Shown here: in pieces, positions 46,965-56,905 of the stretch
How the letters are laid out: every line of letters begins with the position of its first letter
How positions within the stretch are numbered: the stretch's first letter is position 1
Source: an uncultured Acidimicrobiales bacterium
Lineage (GTDB): Bacteria > Actinomycetota > Acidimicrobiia > Acidimicrobiales > Aldehydirespiratoraceae
Direction: 5' to 3'
Length of the DNA: 64,000 bases
Assembly (NCBI GenBank): GCA_964533595.1
Contig: CAZHMP010000004.1
Span: 2,723 to 66,722, forward strand
Notes under the pieces: model-generated
Told to the model about the DNA's origin: nothing
Database searches by the model: none
Seen by the model: the letters and a program-made list of their open reading frames with translations, nothing else
Translations under genes and position numbers: made by a program

Positions 46965-47462
46965 ATGATCAGGTGCGCCACCTCAGACGTTGACGAAACT
47001 CGCGCGGTCGCGTCCAAGATCGCTGCCAGCAGTGGAAATGGCGACCTGTTGGCCCTGTTCGGAGGATTGGGCGCAGGTAAGACGGCATTCACTCAGGGCT
47101 TTGCCGCGGCAATCGGAATCGATGAAGGGGTTACGAGTCCCACGTTCGCTCTCGCCAACCGATATCAAGGTCGGCTCGTGCTCAACCACATCGACGCCTA
47201 CCGGATTGGCGGCGCCGGGGAATCCCGAGATCTCGGAATCGACGAGTTGCTTGATGATGGAGTCACACTCATCGAATGGGCCGACGTGATACTGGATGCG
47301 CTACCACCCGACCGCCTTGATGTTCGGATGGGTTTCGGTGATGGCGACGACGATCGGGTGATCGATTTGCTCGCACATGGGGAATCCTGGGCTAGTCGCA
47401 CCGATGCGTTGGCTGAAGCGCTCGAAGCCTGGACCACACAGCTCAAGGGGTCGTCTTGTTGA
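46965..47462 (+). CDS. tsaE: tRNA t6A37 biosynthesis ATPase TsaE
   Basis: P-loop LFGGLGAGKTAFTQG, SPTFAL...HIDAYR, LIEW. Confidence 0.9.
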   Translation: MIRCATSDVDETRAVASKIAASSGNGDLLALFGGLGAGKTAFTQGFAAAIGIDEGVTSPTFALANRYQGRLVLNHIDAYRIGGAGESRDLGIDELLDDGVTLIEWADVILDALPPDRLDVRMGFGDGDDDRVIDLLAHGESWASRTDALAEALEAWTTQLKGSSC

Positions 47463-48160
47463 TCCTGGGCATCGAATCCGCAACAGCTCAGGTCGGATGC
47501 GCAATCGGCGGGCCTGAGGGGTTGCTGGCATCGGCTCACACCGTCAGGCCACGCAGACACGCGGAATCGCTCGCTCCCCAGATCCAATTCGTTGTCGACC
47601 AGGCCGGCGTGGCCATGACCGATCTCGCAGCGGTGGCCGTGGATGTCGGGCCGGGACTTTTCACCGGGCTTCGAGTCGGAATCACCACGGCGATGTCGCT
47701 GGCCCATGCCCTCAACATTGGTGTGGTCACCCGCACGTCGCTGCGTCTGCTGGCGCACCCGGTTGCCGGCGACGACAGGGATGTTGTTGCGGTGGTGGAC
47801 GCGCGTCGGGGCGAGGTATTTCATGCCAGATACAAGCCTGGCCCCGCCGGGCTCACTGAGGTGACACCGCCGGCCGTGTCGACTCCGTCGGATCTGGCAG
47901 CGGAACTCGCCGCCGATGGTGGCCGGATGCTGTTGGTGGGCGACGGTGCTCGAGCCAACCGCGATCAATTTGCAGAGATCGCCGGACTTGAGCTTGCCTC
48001 GCCGGCATACGACAGACCGTCAGCATCTGTGCTGACCGAACTGGCCCGACCGATCGTGCAGCGTGGAGAACTCATCGATCCGCGTCAGATGAGGCCGCTG
48101 TATCTGCGCGAACCTGACGCCAAAGCCAATTGGGAACCGGCCGCGAGTGACACGCCATGA
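47456..48160 (+). CDS. tsaB: tRNA t6A37 biosynthesis protein TsaB
   Basis: LILGIESATAQVGCAI...VAVDVGPGLFTGLRVGITTA. TTG start overlapping the tsaE stop. Confidence 0.88.
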   Translation: MLILGIESATAQVGCAIGGPEGLLASAHTVRPRRHAESLAPQIQFVVDQAGVAMTDLAAVAVDVGPGLFTGLRVGITTAMSLAHALNIGVVTRTSLRLLAHPVAGDDRDVVAVVDARRGEVFHARYKPGPAGLTEVTPPAVSTPSDLAAELAADGGRMLLVGDGARANRDQFAEIAGLELASPAYDRPSASVLTELARPIVQRGELIDPRQMRPLYLREPDAKANWEPAASDTP

Positions 48161-49692
48161 CATCCAAGGTTCACCACGGCCCCAACATCAAGTTGGTACC
48201 TCTCGCGATGGTCCACATCGACGACGTCATGCGTCTCGATGCCACGGTTTTCTCGAAGCCTTGGTCACGTGATTTGTGGGACAACGAGCTCGGTGATTCC
48301 TCAAGAGTTCACATCGTGGCGATGGATGGCAGTTCCGTGGTGGGTCACGCGGGCATCATGACCGTGGTCGACGATGTCCACGTCACGACAATCGCCGTCG
48401 AACCGGCTTCGCAAGGCAATGGAATCGCGTCGATGCTGCTCGCCGAACTGCTCGAGTCGGCGGTCGCGGCCGGATCGAGAGCCGCCACGCTCGAGGTTCG
48501 AGCCGGCGATCGGCGGGCCCAGCGGCTCTACTCCCGCTTCGGATTTGTCCCGGCCGGGGTGCGCCGCGGCTACTACTCCAACCCGACCGACGACGCCATC
48601 ATCATGTGGGTCTCGGATTTCGATGATCCCGATTGGCGACAACGAATGGAACAGCTGCGCAGCCCGGCTGCAGCCGACCACACCGCGGGACGGCGCGAAA
48701 CCATTCTCGGGATCGAAACATCCTGTGATGAGACGGCGGCTGCTGTCGTACGAGGAGGCTCCACCGTGTTGTCGTCGGTGGTATCGAGCCAGATCGACAT
48801 TCATGCGAGGTTCGGCGGCGTGGTCCCCGAAGTCGCCAGTCGGGCCCACGTCGAGGCGATTCTTCCCGTGGTGGATTCGGCGCTTTCCGAGGCGGGAATC
48901 GCCGGAACCGAACTCGATGCGGTGGCTGTCACCCACGGGCCGGGTCTGGTTGGTGCCTTACTGGTCGGCGTGTCGGCGGCCAAGGCGATGTCGCTGGCGT
49001 GGAATGTTCCCCTCATCGGGGTCAACCATCTCGAGGCCCACCTCTACGCAGCCTTCCTCGACGAACCCGATCTCGAAATGCCTCTGGTGGTGCTGCTCGT
49101 GTCCGGTGGTCACACGATGCTTGTGGTGATGGAGGATCATCTCCACTACCGCGTGCTCGGATCGACTCTCGACGATGCGGCCGGCGAGGCGTTCGACAAG
49201 GTGGCCCGTCACGTCGGGCTCGGATATCCCGGCGGGCCGATAATCGACAGAATCAGCTTGGACGGAGACGCTTCTGCGATCCGATTCCCGAGAGCGATGC
49301 AGTCGAAGGGATGGGACTTCTCGTTCAGTGGACTGAAGACATCCGTGGTCAACCATTTGAGAAAGCATCCCGATACCCGGATAGAGGATCTGGCGGCGTC
49401 GTTCCAAGAGGCGGTCGTCGACGTGCTCGTCACCAAGGCACGTCGTGCTGCTCAAGACGTGGGGGCGAAGGGGATCTGCCTGGCCGGAGGGGTCGCGGCC
49501 AACTCGAGGCTGAGGCAGCGAGTTCGGGAGGTCTGCGAGTCCGACGGCCTGACGGCAAACCTGCCGAGCCGTGAAATGTGCACTGACAACGCCGCGATGG
49601 TCGGCGCGGTTGCGTGGCATCGTCTCAATGTCGACGGCCCATCTCCGCTCGGCATCGGAGCCGACCCATCGCTACGACTTCCGTCGGTCTGA
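48157..49692 (+). CDS. tsaD: Fusion protein: RimI-type GNAT acetyltransferase (aa ~1-165) + TsaD/Kae1 (aa ~180-511)
   Basis: GNAT part: IAVEPASQGNGIASMLL...RAQRLYSRFGF. TsaD part: ILGIETSCDETAAAVV, GVNHLEAHL, LLVSGGHT, GYPGGP, LAGGVAANSRLR. One uninterrupted 511-codon ORF. Confidence 0.88.
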   Translation: MTSKVHHGPNIKLVPLAMVHIDDVMRLDATVFSKPWSRDLWDNELGDSSRVHIVAMDGSSVVGHAGIMTVVDDVHVTTIAVEPASQGNGIASMLLAELLESAVAAGSRAATLEVRAGDRRAQRLYSRFGFVPAGVRRGYYSNPTDDAIIMWVSDFDDPDWRQRMEQLRSPAAADHTAGRRETILGIETSCDETAAAVVRGGSTVLSSVVSSQIDIHARFGGVVPEVASRAHVEAILPVVDSALSEAGIAGTELDAVAVTHGPGLVGALLVGVSAAKAMSLAWNVPLIGVNHLEAHLYAAFLDEPDLEMPLVVLLVSGGHTMLVVMEDHLHYRVLGSTLDDAAGEAFDKVARHVGLGYPGGPIIDRISLDGDASAIRFPRAMQSKGWDFSFSGLKTSVVNHLRKHPDTRIEDLAASFQEAVVDVLVTKARRAAQDVGAKGICLAGGVAANSRLRQRVREVCESDGLTANLPSREMCTDNAAMVGAVAWHRLNVDGPSPLGIGADPSLRLPSV

Positions 49693-49772: not shown

Positions 49773-51539
49773 ATGAACTGGCGGCGATCTCGGCCGACGA
49801 AGATTCGGATGGCACGTATAGGGACTCACTTTGCGCACAGTGACGCGTCGACCGTGACCCGGCTTCGTCGCGCCGGTCGGCTCGGATTCGTCGCTGTGGT
49901 GTTGAGCGTCATGGTGGCGCTCGTCTTCATCGAGTCGAGAAGCGGGTCGATGGATTCGTCGCATCGCGAGTTCGAACTCGCCTCCATGCAGCGACTCGAG
50001 TTGAGTCAGCTGTCAAACAATGTCCAGCGTCTCGCGGCAACCGAGAACCCGATTCTCGAATCGAACTACCGGACATTGGTGGCCGACGGCATCGACATGA
50101 TCCGCAATATCCAAGTGGATCTGGAGATCAACGATCCGGCGATATCTCTCCTGGTCGTCGATCTCGGCAATGGTGCCACGCTGCACAATGCCGTCGATTT
50201 GATGTTCGAGTCGGTCGAATCGACGGTCGAGCGACTCGAGATCGGCGACGGCGAGCTACCGGGCACTCCGCCGGAAGTAGCGGTGACTCTGGATCGAATC
50301 ATTCAACTGGGTGGCTCTTACGAGATGTTGGCCACGGCGGCCGGTCAACGCACTGTCGACTCGATTCATCTGATCCGATCTGGCGGCCGCTGGCTGGCGG
50401 TGCTCGTTCTGTTTTCGGCGTTCGTCAGAGTGTCCGTCGTTGGTGGTCCACTAATGAAGCGACTTGATGAAGACCGGATGAAGTTCGATTCGGAACAGCT
50501 CAGAAGTGCAGCCGAAGCTGATCTCCAGGAGCTGTCCGCGCTGATGGGCGATGGCATGGAGACATCGTCCGACGAGCCGTCGGCTCTGAGAGTGGTCGAA
50601 CGAGCCCTTCAGCACGTCATCCCCGGGGTCTCTGCGGAGTTGCTCTTGGCCGATTCGTCGATGGCACATCTGAAACTCGCGGCGGCCAATCCCGGTGTCG
50701 TCAATCCTGGTTGCGGCGTGGGATCTCCGTGGTCCTGCCCGGCGGTTCGACGCGCGGAAACAAGCGTCTTTCCGAATTCGGAATCTGTGCGGTCCTGCAG
50801 CTACCTCAGCGGACGCGCCGCCGGTGCGTGCTCAGCCGTATGCGTCCCGGTCTCTTTCATGGGTGGTGCAATGGGAGTTCTCCATGTCACCGGTGAGGTG
50901 GGCTGGAACCCGGGACCCGAGGTGGTTGAGCCGCTTCAGATCATTACCCACCAGACCGCAATGAGGATCGGGACGTTGCGTTCGTTCGCCAAAGCCGAAG
51001 TGCAGGCTTCAACCGATGTGCTGACTGGCCTACCCAACCGTCGCTCCACGGAAAGCCACCTGCGATCGTTCCTTTCCGAGCAGTCACCCGGGTCGGTTGC
51101 ACTCGCCGACCTCGATCACTTCAAGGTGCTGAACGACACATTTGGCCATGAGATGGGTGACCGGGCCCTGCGGGTCTTCGCCGGAGCACTTCGATCGACA
51201 TTGCGAGAAAACGATTGGGCTGGTCGCTGGGGCGGCGAAGAATTTGTGATGGTTCTTCCCGGCCTCAACTCCACTGAGGCAGGTCGCATTCTCGACAGGC
51301 TGCGTGGGCGGCTTCTGGAAACGTGCAGCGAGTCGGAAATCCCGGAGTTCACGGTGTCGGTGGGAATTGTCGACACCACATCCGGCTCGACTGTCGATGA
51401 GCTATTGAGGCTGGCGGACGGTGCCCTCTATTCGGCCAAGGCCGAGGGGCGCAACCGAATCGTGGCTGGCCCGACGCCCGCCGTCTCCGACGATCAAGGA
51501 CCTGCAATGAAGAGCCTGCCCAGAGAGGTGCGATCATGA
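49773..51539 (+). CDS. Membrane sensor diguanylate cyclase, paralogue 1 (2 TM, extracytoplasmic helical domain, Cys-rich GAF-like module, GGDEF)
   Basis: TM helices near aa 37-53 and 207-225. Cys module GCGVGSPWSCPA...SC...CSAVC. GGDEF domain: GLPNRR, DLDHFKVLND, I-site REND, GGEEF. Confidence 0.85.
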   Translation: MNWRRSRPTKIRMARIGTHFAHSDASTVTRLRRAGRLGFVAVVLSVMVALVFIESRSGSMDSSHREFELASMQRLELSQLSNNVQRLAATENPILESNYRTLVADGIDMIRNIQVDLEINDPAISLLVVDLGNGATLHNAVDLMFESVESTVERLEIGDGELPGTPPEVAVTLDRIIQLGGSYEMLATAAGQRTVDSIHLIRSGGRWLAVLVLFSAFVRVSVVGGPLMKRLDEDRMKFDSEQLRSAAEADLQELSALMGDGMETSSDEPSALRVVERALQHVIPGVSAELLLADSSMAHLKLAAANPGVVNPGCGVGSPWSCPAVRRAETSVFPNSESVRSCSYLSGRAAGACSAVCVPVSFMGGAMGVLHVTGEVGWNPGPEVVEPLQIITHQTAMRIGTLRSFAKAEVQASTDVLTGLPNRRSTESHLRSFLSEQSPGSVALADLDHFKVLNDTFGHEMGDRALRVFAGALRSTLRENDWAGRWGGEEFVMVLPGLNSTEAGRILDRLRGRLLETCSESEIPEFTVSVGIVDTTSGSTVDELLRLADGALYSAKAEGRNRIVAGPTPAVSDDQGPAMKSLPREVRS

Positions 51540-53233
51540 GGGTCAACGGTCGATCTGGGCAAGGGCAGCCATTGCACGTCCGATTCCGGCGCATCTACCA
51601 GTTGGGAATGGTGTTGGCAGTGGTGGCCTGGGGACTCGTCTGGTTCGCCAACCAACGAGGGCTCGACGGCTCTCTGGCAGCCAGTGCCAGGGCGCGAGTT
51701 GCAACGAGCATCAGGCAGGATGTCGCCGAGGTGGGAGACGCGCTCGACGGGGTGGAGGAGTCTCCGGAATCGCCCGTGGCCAAGTCCGATCTGAGCCGGG
51801 TGGCGGCGCGACTGGATCGAAGTTGGGCCGGCCTCGTGTCCGACCCGACGAGCATGCCGGCGGATGTCGAGTTGTTGATCAACGGCCCGAACGGCCTCGC
51901 GGAACAGATGACATTGTTGCTGAGCGGTGCAGAGTCCGTGGCCGATGTTTCGGCGACCCGTGCCCTGAGGATGGTCGCCTCCGAGGCTGGGAGATTCGAG
52001 AAGCTGTCGGCGGAAATTTCGAGTCGCCTCGGACAGGTGGTTGCATCGTATGAGGCACAGGAGGAGGCGTCGGTTGGTGATGCTCGCCGTGCGAGCAATG
52101 TTGCATACGCCTCCGCGATAGCCATCTCGATCGTTGTGGCGGTCGCCTTCCTTCGACCGATGGAACGTCGACTTCGCGACGAGCACTATGAGCTCGTCGA
52201 TGCCGGCACCTCCCAGGATGCCGAGAGGTTGAGACAGGAACTCTCCGCTCATCTCGCCGAGGGGCTCGACGCGGTGGAGAGCGAGTCGGAGACCATGACG
52301 CTTGTGTCACGCGCTCTGGCCCAAGTCGTCGACGTGCCCGCCGAGGTGCTGATGTCCGACACTTCGAGAACCAATCTCACCGTTGCCGCTGCCCATCCCG
52401 TGTTCGGTGGCCCGGGGTGCGGTGTCTCGTCTCCAGCTGATTGTCCAGCCATCTCTCGTGGCCGAACCCTCTACTACGAGAACTCTGGCGCAATCAATGC
52501 CTGCCCCCAACTTCAGCAACACTGTGATGGGCCGACGTCGGCAACCTGCATTCCACTTTCATTCATGGGCAAGTCGATGGGGGTCGTCCATTCGACCGGA
52601 CCAATCGACGATGAGGCGGCAGAATCAAACCGGGACTTCCTGTCGATGATCGCCTCACAGTCTGCGGTTCGGATCGGAACCCTGCGGTCGTTTGCTCAGG
52701 TCGAGCTGCAAACATCCACCGACATCCTGACCGGATTGCCAAACAGACGAGCCACCGAAGACCGGGTCATGCGTCTGAATTCTGCGGAGAAAGTCGGATC
52801 AGTTGCAATGGCGGACCTCGACTATTTCAAATCGCTCAACGACACATACGGTCACGAGGCCGGCGATCGGGCTTTGCGATTGTTTGCAGACGTCGCGAGA
52901 GACGCCATGCGCGACGATGACTGGTTGGGACGTTGGGGCGGCGAAGAGTTTGTGTTCGTCATGCCCGGGATGGTCGCGTCGCAAGCCAAGGCCGCGCTCG
53001 ATCGGATGCGAGCCCGACTGGCCGAGGAATGCGCAAAGGCGGAGGTCCCAACCGTGAGAGTTTCGATTGGGGTCGTCGATACCGAGTCAGCGGAGACCAC
53101 GAACAACCTGATGCGGCTCGCAGATGAGGCGTTGCTCGCCGCCAAGGCACAGGGGCGCGATCGTGTTCTCGTCGGTCCGGTGATGGCCGTGGTCGGATCC
53201 GGCGCGTCGGATGATGCTGAGCCGACGACATGA
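51536..53233 (+). CDS. Membrane sensor diguanylate cyclase, paralogue 2
   Basis: Same architecture: GCGVSSPADCPA...AC...C...TC, GLPNRR, DLDYFKSLND, RDDD-x5-GGEEF. ATGA overlap with paralogue 1. Confidence 0.85.
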   Translation: MRVNGRSGQGQPLHVRFRRIYQLGMVLAVVAWGLVWFANQRGLDGSLAASARARVATSIRQDVAEVGDALDGVEESPESPVAKSDLSRVAARLDRSWAGLVSDPTSMPADVELLINGPNGLAEQMTLLLSGAESVADVSATRALRMVASEAGRFEKLSAEISSRLGQVVASYEAQEEASVGDARRASNVAYASAIAISIVVAVAFLRPMERRLRDEHYELVDAGTSQDAERLRQELSAHLAEGLDAVESESETMTLVSRALAQVVDVPAEVLMSDTSRTNLTVAAAHPVFGGPGCGVSSPADCPAISRGRTLYYENSGAINACPQLQQHCDGPTSATCIPLSFMGKSMGVVHSTGPIDDEAAESNRDFLSMIASQSAVRIGTLRSFAQVELQTSTDILTGLPNRRATEDRVMRLNSAEKVGSVAMADLDYFKSLNDTYGHEAGDRALRLFADVARDAMRDDDWLGRWGGEEFVFVMPGMVASQAKAALDRMRARLAEECAKAEVPTVRVSIGVVDTESAETTNNLMRLADEALLAAKAQGRDRVLVGPVMAVVGSGASDDAEPTT

Positions 53234-54858
53234 CGGTTGTGCCCAGCAGGGCCAGAGAATGGTGGGCCGGCGTCGGCCGCCACCAACGATTGCAAGGATC
53301 GGTGCTCGGCGCGTTCGCCGTCGCAGTAATCCTTACAAGCGCCCTGCTGTTAAGCGCCGGTCAACTCGGTCAACGACTCGATTCGAGAGCGTCACAATCC
53401 CATGGCGGGCTGGTTCTTGCTCAATCGATGACCCGAGCCAATCTTGTGCTCGAGGCTTACGACGGATCGGTTCAGAGCCGGACAGATCTGGCCGATGCTG
53501 CGGCTGATCTTTCCGCTGCCATCGATGGTGGCAACGAATCCGAAGGCGCGGTTTGGCTTCCTGAGCTGAGACACCTTGCTCGGTCGATCAGCGGCATGGC
53601 GGAATCTTCCATGGCCGGTGAGACCGCACGCACATACGCAGAGAGTTTGGCTCAGCAACAGGAGGTTCTTCTCGGCGAATTGGTGGCCGACACTCAACAC
53701 TTGGTGGCCGACTCCTCTTCGGACTACAGCGCTTGGTATCGGTGGGTCGTCGTCGTGGCGGTAATCGGCATGCTCGTATTGGCACTCACCGTGGTCCACG
53801 TGATCTTGCCTCTCAACCGGTCGATTCGACGGTCGCTGGTGAAGCTCGAGGCCTGGACCGCCACGGCCAGGCAAAAAGCCATTCAGCGCAAGCTGTTTTC
53901 TGAGGTGACCGACGGGCTTGAATCGGCTACTTCTGAGCGGCAAGCGTTCGCCGTGATCGAACGAACACTGCGCGAAATCACCACAGATTTCGAAGTGGAG
54001 GTGCTGCTTGCCGAGTCGGCCAAGGGACATCTCCACCCGGAAGTCGTACACCCTGTCAACGGTGGCCCTGGCTGTGGGGTGACATCTCCGTGGTCCTGCC
54101 CGGCCGTGCGAGCCGCGACGAGTGTCGTATTCGATGACTCGCGCGAAATCAGGGCTTGCCCGCATTTGGCTCGGCACGTTGATCCTTGCTCGGCGGCGTG
54201 CGCTCCGCTCATGTTCATGGGCGAACCGATGGGAGTGGTCCATGCGACCGGACCGGTGGGGGTTCAACCGCCAGAGAACATGGTGGAGGCGCTGTCGGTG
54301 CTGGCGACGGAGGCTTCCACGCGCTTGGGCACGCTGCGGGCATTCGCTCATGCAGAGATGAAGGCGGCTACCGATGCGTTGACCGGTAGCTACAGTCGCC
54401 GCGCCTCAGAGGAGAAGATCGGCCAGCTGGTAAGGCGTCCCGGTTCCGCCGCGATTGCACTGTTCGAAGTCGGAGGACTCATCGATCTCAATTCGCATCG
54501 GGGGAGTCAGGCCGGGGATCATGCGCTGCGCTTGTTCGTGGAGACGGTGAGAGAAAATGTGCGGGCAACCGATTGGTGCGGGCGCTGGCACGGTGCGCAG
54601 TTCCTGGTGGTGATGGAAGCGACGACATCGGCTGATGCGCGTCGACGCCTCGAGGCGACCCGCATTGCAGTCCTGAATGCGTTCTCGTCGGCGGATCTGG
54701 ATGGACTCACGATTCGTTTCGGCGTGACCGATTCGGCTGGAGTCACCAATGTGGCGCTCCTGATGGAGGCCGCAGATGCCGCGCTCGTCGGGTCGGGCGA
54801 TGACAACGCATCGACCTTGGAGGAACTGGCTGCCATCGTGGAACAAATCGAGGTCTGA
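53230..54858 (+). CDS. Membrane sensor protein with degenerate GGDEF domain, paralogue 3
   Basis: Same TM and Cys module (GCGVTSPWSCPA...AC...CSAAC). GGDEF is replaced by HGAQF and GLPNRR by GSYSRR, and the metal-binding DxD context is lost. The RxxD (RATD) I-site is retained. ATGA overlap with paralogue 2. Confidence 0.8.
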   Translation: MTVVPSRAREWWAGVGRHQRLQGSVLGAFAVAVILTSALLLSAGQLGQRLDSRASQSHGGLVLAQSMTRANLVLEAYDGSVQSRTDLADAAADLSAAIDGGNESEGAVWLPELRHLARSISGMAESSMAGETARTYAESLAQQQEVLLGELVADTQHLVADSSSDYSAWYRWVVVVAVIGMLVLALTVVHVILPLNRSIRRSLVKLEAWTATARQKAIQRKLFSEVTDGLESATSERQAFAVIERTLREITTDFEVEVLLAESAKGHLHPEVVHPVNGGPGCGVTSPWSCPAVRAATSVVFDDSREIRACPHLARHVDPCSAACAPLMFMGEPMGVVHATGPVGVQPPENMVEALSVLATEASTRLGTLRAFAHAEMKAATDALTGSYSRRASEEKIGQLVRRPGSAAIALFEVGGLIDLNSHRGSQAGDHALRLFVETVRENVRATDWCGRWHGAQFLVVMEATTSADARRRLEATRIAVLNAFSSADLDGLTIRFGVTDSAGVTNVALLMEAADAALVGSGDDNASTLEELAAIVEQIEV

Positions 54859-54950: not shown

Positions 54951-55241
54951 ATGAACCTTCAGCCACTCGAGGACCGGATTGTAGTCCGGGCAAACGAAGC
55001 TGAATCCACCACAGCCAGCGGCTTGGTGATTCCTGATACCGCCAAGGAAAAGCCCCAGCAGGGTGAAGTCCTGGCCGTTGGCCCAGGCCGACGCTCGGAC
55101 CAGACCGGCGAGATCATTCCCGTCGATGTGGCCGTGGGTGACACCGTCGTCTACTCCAAGTACGGCGGCACGGAAATCACCGTCGAGGGTGAAGACCTGC
55201 TGATCCTCAACGCCCGCGACGTGCTCGCCAAGATCGGCTGA
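54951..55241 (+). CDS. groES: Co-chaperonin GroES
   Basis: [44 protein letters not shown]. Confidence 0.97.
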
Positions 55242-55246
55242 GGTAG

Positions 55247-56905
<1,659 letters not shown>

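Follow-up and report, generated by a model that had tools for sequence, protein, structure and literature searches.

Here we describe a GAF sensor domain with four conserved cysteines that is shared by three tandem genes of the diguanylate cyclase type in a stretch of DNA from an uncultured Acidimicrobiales bacterium (contig CAZHMP010000004.1). The whole stretch of 64,000 nucleotides is called the window here, its positions are counted from its first letter, and the three proteins are referred to as paralogues 1 to 3. Judging from the sequence comparisons set out below, the domain, which we call Cys4-GAF, represents a GAF subfamily that is distinct, widespread and so far uncharacterised. Our favoured reading, held tentatively and at somewhat less than an even chance, is that the four thiolates hold an iron-sulfur (Fe-S) cluster that gates cyclase activity; that the pocket of the domain houses a metal centre of some kind is probable. 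The original prediction, made from the letters of the window, proposed cyclases responsive to redox state, O2, nitric oxide (NO) or metal. This is a well-motivated inference, and the computed data do not tell Fe-S, zinc, mononuclear iron and disulfides apart. The data establish the motif and its invariance, the GAF fold, the position of the cysteines on elements that form the pocket, and the order of the domains; that the four cysteines converge on one site, which cofactor they bind, what is sensed and which way activity is regulated are inferred.

The constellation can be read directly from the translations of the three genes, all encoded on the plus strand, which match the reported pattern C-x7-C-x19-C-x13/14-C in every case. 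Paralogue 1 has C314-x7-C322-x19-C342-x14-C357 at 50712-50843 (CGVGSPWSCPAVRRAETSVFPNSESVRSCSYLSGRAAGACSAVC), together with a non-conserved C353; paralogue 2 has C295-x7-C303-x19-C323-x14-C338 at 52418-52549 (CGVSSPADCPAISRGRTLYYENSGAINACPQLQQHCDGPTSATC), together with an extra C330; and paralogue 3 has C282-x7-C290-x19-C310-x13-C324 at 54073-54201 (CGVTSPWSCPAVRAATSVVFDDSREIRACPHLARHVDPCSAAC), together with an extra C320. These three intervals span exactly the first to the last conserved cysteine codon, and the peptide originally quoted overruns its interval by 1 residue upstream and by 17 residues (VPVSFMGGAMGVLHVTG) downstream. Each paralogue contains six cysteines, five of them within the 44-residue stretch, and an alignment of the three proteins places the fifth differently in each, which agrees with its description as floating. 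Behind the last cysteine lies the strand FMG..MGV.H.TG, which was also correctly recognised; its histidine is H371 in paralogue 1 (MGVLH, codon at 50883-50885 on the plus strand), and this residue adjoining the cysteine site had been overlooked. No further copy of the domain was found in the rest of the 64-kb window.

What was noticed in three proteins extends to a very large cross-phylum family for which the motif serves as a marker, a scope the original prediction did not have. An exhaustive hidden Markov model search with a profile built from the GAF domains of the trio, run against 1.84 billion representatives of 50%-identity clusters, returned 1273 matches at E<=1e-3 and 353 at E<=1e-30. 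Conservation was then read from an alignment of 151 sequences drawn from the three paralogues and the best 150 of the 1273 database cluster representatives. The cysteines are conserved in these homologues: C314, C322 and C342 are each found in 151/151 sequences and C357 in 150/151, and the histidine at position 371 is likewise found in all 151. The same is true of P359, two residues after the last cysteine, while a proline follows C342 (P343) in 132/151 and C322 (P323) in 61/151. Besides the cysteines, the invariant or near-invariant positions are H371, P359, G364, G368, L345, A324, E289, R326, R327, R348, S336, R398 and R403. The fifth position holds cysteine in only 74/151 sequences and otherwise mostly valine, leucine or isoleucine, which together replace it in 52/151. 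The single exception at C357 (sequence P0149) has a tryptophan there, one base away from cysteine, and keeps the fifth cysteine, which lies upstream by four residues (CSAVW) and might take over as a ligand for the one that was lost; this protein also has a different N-terminal sensor region, which is non-helical. Mean column identity across the domain is only 57%, and cysteine makes up 0.5% of residues outside the domain in this family, compared with four to five cysteines per 44 residues inside it. The constellation is therefore far beyond chance, and with its near-invariant cysteines in proteins otherwise so poor in them it is the signature that defines a large family. Fixed spacing of the four cysteines had been claimed as well, and this stands for the first two intervals (x7, with one x8 in the family, and x19); the last interval does vary, from 11 to 14 residues.

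When one genome of each species was scanned with the three-paralogue alignment as query, 91 copies were found in 80 loci, and 91/91 match C-x7(8)-C-x19-C-x11-14-C-x-P. Their hosts within the Actinomycetota are Acidimicrobiales/Microthrix, Solirubrobacterales, Gaiellales, Mycobacteriales and others, and outside that phylum they are Steroidobacteraceae and other Gammaproteobacteria, Polyangiaceae and Vicinamibacterales. Among 154 sequences inspected, the domain is fused to GGDEF in 131; the remainder are mostly truncated or frameshifted, and a few, paralogue 3 included, have a degenerate GGDEF domain. The family signature can be written as PGC-x-V-x-SP-x2-C-x-AVRRG ... ACP-x-L-x-R ... SAVCVP-x-x-FMG-x3-GV-x-H. 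Members carry generic database names such as 'GAF domain-containing protein' and 'sensor domain-containing diguanylate cyclase'. Word-index searches for homologues, with the GAF domain of paralogue 1 or a 40-sequence profile as query, returned just fragments of <300 amino acids with generic names, and an NCBIfam search of the trio gave generic diguanylate cyclase models and nothing more specific. Neither this subfamily nor any Fe-S or four-cysteine GAF cyclase was found in Pfam, NCBIfam, solved structures or the searchable literature, and no characterised orthologue emerged from cluster member lists, a plasmid tblastn search or the encoding contigs. Streptomyces CdgE, a soluble GAF-GGDEF protein of 382 amino acids (PMC7911125), was considered as a candidate member, and membership is not claimed.

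That the sensor module has a GAF-like fold, as originally suggested, is supported both by family profiles and by structure prediction. Pfam GAF_2 gives 16.9, 19.8 and 28.4 bits for the window copies, all below the 28.6 cut-off, and across the family it matches 40/40 members at E<0.01, the best at 2e-12. The AlphaFold2 model of the paralogue 1 GAF domain (amino acids 265-413, 50565-51011, plus strand), built from 55 aligned sequences, has a predicted local distance difference test (pLDDT) of 95.2 and a predicted template modelling score of 0.91. A Foldseek search of this model against the PDB gave 227 matches at E<=0.001, 50 of which were listed; almost without exception these 50 are GAF domains, a fold with an antiparallel sheet that has N- and C-terminal helices on one face and a lidded pocket on the other, and their template modelling (TM) scores reach 0.76. 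Among those listed are Lcd1 with bound cAMP (5w10, TM score 0.76, E 2e-7), 3oov, the PtsP GAF domains, the free methionine-R-sulfoxide reductase (fRMsr) structures 3mmh and 3ksf, and phytochromes. Searched against the sequences of the PDB, the family profile gave a weak generic GAF match only (3oov, E 2e-4).

In this model of paralogue 1, C314 lies in the loop between beta2 and beta3, C322 stands directly before a short helix (74-78 in domain numbering), C342 sits in a coil of 20 residues that links beta3 to beta4, and C357 (strand beta4) and H371 (beta5) are on the central hairpin. The coil around C342 has a pLDDT of 93-98, which is what an ordered loop holding a cofactor would be expected to show. 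We take these elements to be the ones that make up the canonical GAF ligand pocket, with its lid loops, short helix and floor strand, and the four cysteines, H371 and the conserved R326, R327 and R348 would thus line that pocket. The topology of the model fits a convergence of the four cysteines on a single site. The domain is presumably cytoplasmic, given two hydrophobic segments ahead of it, their arrangement in the model and the need of the adjoining GGDEF domain for GTP, and this location makes permanent structural disulfides unlikely.

Four invariant thiols and an invariant histidine in a cytoplasmic sensor pocket speak for a cofactor that they ligate together. If that cofactor is an Fe-S cluster, a [4Fe-4S] or [2Fe-2S] centre would be ligated jointly by the four thiolates inside the GAF pocket, and its oxidation, nitrosylation or loss, brought about by O2, NO, reactive oxygen species or iron/sulfur status, would rearrange the lid loops. 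This change would move the C-terminal GAF helix and thereby switch the synthesis of cyclic di-GMP (c-di-GMP) on or off. In the model, that helix (RIGTLRSF, with the invariant residues R398, G400 and R403) continues straight into the GGDEF domain, and its continuity offers a plausible route from the state of the cluster to cyclase activity. We favour Fe-S because the four ligands are widely spaced, each on a structural element of its own and none in a CxxC knuckle, because the cysteines occur in the contexts G-C, C-P and C-V-P, and because conserved arginine could offset the negative charge of a cluster. Fe-S proteins are expected to keep three or four conserved ligands, usually cysteine, and here there are four invariant cysteines and one invariant histidine.

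Several observations weigh against a cluster. The PDB sequence and Foldseek searches found no solved GAF structure with a four-cysteine Fe-S site, and the best structural matches are nucleotide-binding GAF domains (Lcd1 with cAMP) and fRMsr. Profile alignment by hhalign to fRMsr and to the NO sensor NorR reaches a probability of only 0.1-2%, and the cysteine match to NorR needs two gaps. No gene for Fe-S assembly or redox functions was found among the conserved neighbours in the 80 loci. The host lineages are mostly aerobes, where assembly of a cluster labile to O2 would be rare. Conserved arginine, serine and histidine residues could as well bind a small anionic ligand, and a GAF domain placed between HAMP or the second transmembrane helix and GGDEF might be a mere transmission module with a structural metal.

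Precedents for the favoured principle exist in other folds. In FNR, NreB and WhiB/Wbl proteins, four cysteines ligate an O2- or NO-sensitive cluster, which is what we propose for Cys4-GAF, but their folds (CRP-like, PAS and Wbl), their CxxC-containing spacings and their outputs all differ from those seen here. The reference motifs for FNR, NreB, WhiB and ZAS proteins are of the kind C-x2-C-x5-C...C, C-x2-C-x11-C-x2-C, C...C-x2-C-x5-C and H-x3-C-x2-C. The spacings of 7, 19 and 11-14 residues, the lack of any CxxC among the invariant cysteines and the GAF fold agree with the original statement that none of these motifs is matched. Other diguanylate cyclases are likewise gated by a cofactor-bearing sensor domain that responds to O2, redox or metal, as in the globin of DosC/DgcO, the hemerythrin of Bhr-DGC and the zinc-binding CZB domain of DgcZ; the sensor folds and cofactors of these three are other than a GAF domain with four cysteines. 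Closer in fold is the GAF-containing sensor CSK/Hik2, which has a [3Fe-4S] cluster with one cysteine ligand identified (PMC6949291). There the Fe-S cluster gives a signalling enzyme its redox sensing, as we propose for Cys4-GAF; unlike the present family, CSK/Hik2 has no four-cysteine motif, has a histidine kinase output and shows no detectable sequence relation. The metal centres in the GAF pockets of NorR and PexR count for the favoured reading too, as does the topological precedent from weak alignments, described below, to the cysteines of fRMsr and the iron-centre residues of NorR.

The same invariance and the same placement in the pocket would also suit a single metal ion on four thiolates, as Zn(Cys)4, as a Cys3His site or as mononuclear iron, a reading that we consider less likely, at roughly one chance in four. 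Such an ion could be purely structural, keeping the lid loops in place in a GAF domain that does no more than pass on the signal from the ectodomain or HAMP, or it could form a zinc-thiolate redox switch. In switches of this type, which include Hsp33, RsrA and the CZB domain of DgcZ, an oxidant expels the zinc and disulfides form. An invariant histidine adjoins the cysteine site, a structural role is plausible for a domain that lies between HAMP (found in 37/60 relatives) and GGDEF, and the mostly aerobic host lineages favour a metal that is inert to O2. Most Zn(Cys)4 sites, however, have CxxC or CxxxxC knuckles, of which there are none among the invariant cysteines; the sole C-x3-C pair uses the dispensable fifth cysteine, and ligands from four separate elements better suit a larger cofactor.

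Two GAF domains with a metal ion in the pocket lend this reading further support. The E. coli NO sensor NorR holds mononuclear non-haem iron in its GAF pocket, and substitutions at Y98, D99, H111 and C113 disrupt it (PMC2941729). In the hhalign alignment (probability 0.13%), these four residues fall in the same loop and beta4 region as the cysteines of the present family. As would apply here, the loop before beta4, strand beta4 itself (C113) and beta5 make up the NorR metal centre, and binding is relayed to a downstream output; the ligands of NorR, however, are arginine, aspartates and one cysteine rather than four cysteines, and NorR is a soluble protein with the output of an AAA+ sigma54 activator. 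Assignment to the NorR type of iron GAF (R75, D96, D99, C113, D131) was rejected, only the cysteine being matchable, with two gaps, and the aspartate positions being occupied by arginine or serine and by threonine. The second is the GAF domain of PexR, an H2O2 sensor of Myxococcus, which binds zinc or iron in its pocket through histidine, cysteine and aspartate (PMC12754779). It shows that a metal in a GAF pocket can sense an oxidant, but it has one pocket cysteine, belongs to a bacterial enhancer-binding protein and not to a cyclase, and falls in another subfamily.

A third reading dispenses with metal and takes the cysteines as a thiol switch, operating through one or two disulfides, per- or polysulfide bridges or mycothiol adducts on an ancestry like that of fRMsr, and reporting oxidative, sulfane-sulfur or electrophile stress directly. 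We consider this unlikely. In its favour, a disulfide in a cytoplasmic domain would be a signal and not a structural feature, and fRMsr is among the closest folds (3mmh and 3ksf, E ~5e-6), with three catalytic cysteines at topologically parallel positions. E. coli fRMsr (MsrC) has C66-x9-C76-x23-C100, compared with C-x7-C-x19-C here. The profile alignment has a probability of 1-2%, yet between the short helix and the beta4-beta5 hairpin, both included, it is colinear; deepening the fRMsr profile with enterobacterial sequences of >=85% identity hardly improved it. In this weak alignment C322 is one residue off C76 and C342 three aligned positions off the catalytic C100, while E107, D123 and D125 (in 165-residue numbering), which bind the substrate in the fRMsr pocket, stand opposite A355, H371 and T373. 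By this comparison, C357 and H371 would point into the pocket, and the first three cysteines would stand where fRMsr has its catalytic triad. In fRMsr, the three cysteines form catalytic disulfides and the catalytic cysteine lies within an H[I/V]xCD motif (bioRxiv 10.1101/2021.02.26.433065). Membership in fRMsr was rejected on residues: the family has A-C-P-x-L-R in place of H[I/V]xCD, and A355, H371 and T373 replace the Glu/Asp/Asp set. The absence of these residues also speaks against a metal-free switch, as does sequence similarity to fRMsr that is not significant, and exactly four cysteines plus a histidine are more typical of ligation than of a peroxidatic and resolving pair. Moreover, fRMsr is an enzyme and not a sensor module, and it is without the fourth, beta4 cysteine of the Cys4-GAF family.

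The least probable reading, which we would put at about one chance in ten, is that the pocket holds an organic ligand, whether heme with axial ligation by Cys(-Pro) and His and a thiol/disulfide switch, a nucleotide or a small anion, and that the remaining cysteines are merely accessory. Cys-Pro ligation of heme combined with a thiol/disulfide switch has precedents in Rev-erb beta and in the heme-regulatory motifs of HO-2, and heme-binding GAF domains are known from DosS and DosT. The family has C342-P343 and C322-P323, at the frequencies given above, beside the invariant H371, and an anion could be held by the conserved R326, R327, R348 and S336. Of the structural matches listed, the best is the GAF domain of Lcd1 from Leptospira with cAMP bound (5w10), and Lcd1 has the same wiring of GAF to GGDEF; unlike the trio, it is activated by cAMP, has no cysteine constellation, is soluble and shares 17% identity. 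Neither heme nor a nucleotide needs four invariant cysteines, a CxxCH motif is absent, and the PDB profile search found no sequence relation to heme-binding or cyclic nucleotide-binding GAF domains beyond the fold.

Whatever the cofactor of the favoured Fe-S or other metal site, the output domains of the three paralogues can be compared directly, and here the third differs from the other two in a way that had been missed. Pfam GGDEF matches paralogues 1 to 3 with E-values of 1e-39, 7e-36 and 1e-15, the last at only 58 bits. Paralogues 1 and 2 have an intact GGEEF motif, an intact DxLTGLPNRR motif and an RxxD inhibitory site (I-site); the I-site and active site of paralogue 1 lie at 51204-51245 (RENDWAGRWGGEEF) and those of paralogue 2 at 52910-52951 (RDDD...GGEEF), both on the plus strand. 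In paralogue 3 the RxxD I-site precedes a degenerate active site (54562-54603, plus strand; RATDWCGRWHGAQF), with HGAQF as its GGDEF motif, DALTGSYSRR lacking LPNRR, and EVGG replacing the DLDH metal site. The RxxD site stands five residues before the GGDEF motif in all three, as REND, RDDD and RATD, respectively. Despite the lost catalytic residues, the Cys4-GAF domain of paralogue 3 is complete. Retention of both the four-cysteine sensor and RxxD suggests a non-catalytic regulatory role, and from its sequence paralogue 3 is probably a regulatory partner or a c-di-GMP-binding subunit of the two active enzymes.

This arrangement is not confined to the window. The trio, in the same order and with a degenerate third copy, is found in five metagenome-assembled genomes (MAGs) of Acidimicrobiales, Microthrix and unclassified Actinomycetota, and this recurrence indicates that the triplication is old and has been maintained. 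In the related MAGs the motif of the third copy reads GGAQF, AGGEF, SGAEF or AGAEF, and its last cysteine spacing is always x13. The loci concerned are L001, L002, L004, L005, L006 and L008, the last being a partial array with the GGAQF copy. By clustering, the trio in the related loci is flanked by the same upstream (6 loci) and downstream (5 loci) gene families.

In the window, the three genes follow one another on the plus strand at 49773-51539 (paralogue 1, 588 amino acids), 51536-53233 (paralogue 2, 565 amino acids) and 53230-54858 (paralogue 3, 542 amino acids). Because their start and stop codons overlap as ATGA at 51536-51539 and at 53230-53233, the three paralogues almost certainly form one operon and are co-transcribed and translationally coupled. 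Overall identity to paralogue 1 is 40% for paralogue 2 and 29% for paralogue 3. The predicted architecture of paralogue 1 is a transmembrane helix, a helical ectodomain, a second transmembrane helix, a signalling helix, Cys4-GAF and an active GGDEF domain; paralogue 2 is built alike, with a GGDEF domain also predicted to be active, and so is paralogue 3, with its degenerate one.

The full-length AlphaFold2 model of paralogue 1 has a pLDDT of 90.2 and places GAF at amino acids 268-413 and GGDEF at 414-565. The first predicted transmembrane segment (amino acids 37-55, 49881-49937, plus strand) has a hydropathy peak of 2.46 and lies within model helix 27-89. Between the two hydrophobic segments is a region of ~150 residues that is all-helical, the extracytoplasmic domain (amino acids 56-206, 49938-50390, plus strand; model helices 27-89, 93-120, 137-157 and 167-264), which in the model is likely to be a four-helix-bundle sensor. 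The second predicted transmembrane segment (amino acids 207-225, 50391-50447, plus strand) lies in model helix 167-264 and runs unbroken into the signalling helix up to amino acid 264. None of the ectodomains of the three window paralogues has a Pfam match, whereas those of some relatives match 4HB_MCP_1, PilJ or CHASE3; the HAMP domain that precedes GAF in many relatives is likewise absent from the three window copies. The ectodomains of the trio are all-helical and strongly divergent among the three, and the trio may combine a common cytoplasmic input with the sensing of different external signals.

The trio sits between tsaD and groES-groEL. Upstream, tsaB (47456-48160) directly precedes a rimI-tsaD fusion (48157-49692), a single open reading frame of 511 amino acids with an N-terminal RimI-like GNAT acetyltransferase at amino acids 23-130 and a full TsaD domain at amino acids 203-483; rimI and tsaD are mostly two separate genes. 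Downstream lie groES (54951-55241) and groEL (55253-56905). Analysis of conserved neighbours in the 80 loci found no partner gene common across phyla, so the surroundings of the family offer no operon-based clue to function. DNA near-identical to 50300-52300 occurs in one public run only, a microbial mat metagenome of 2011 (86% of sampled words), and no RNA run with such DNA was found among public runs.

Diguanylate cyclases with a GAF sensor are common, and the signals perceived by their GAF domains are mostly unknown; publications on c-di-GMP in Streptomyces state as much for the GAF-containing enzymes of that genus (PMC6205966, PMC7911125). A large and sharply delimited GAF subfamily is now defined by a simple sequence signature that points to a cofactor site. 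It is possible, and we hold this with some reserve, that Cys4-GAF is an unrecognised class of Fe-S sensor, the first with a four-cysteine cluster in a GAF pocket, found nearly always on GGDEF cyclases and coupling O2, NO, redox or iron status to c-di-GMP. Such a class would comprise >1000 clusters in Actinomycetota, Pseudomonadota, Myxococcota and Acidobacteriota, and the Acidimicrobiales trio would be made of two active cyclases and one dead but sensor-competent partner. If an Fe-S cluster or another redox-active metal is indeed present, it would link redox state or NO and O2 directly to c-di-GMP signalling in bacteria that abound in soil and water, among them Solirubrobacterales, Gaiellales, Acidimicrobiales/Microthrix and Steroidobacteraceae, and GAF domains would gain a further, new mode of coordination. 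The conserved three-gene set with its degenerate member is also a compact natural system for the study of heteromeric regulation among cyclases.

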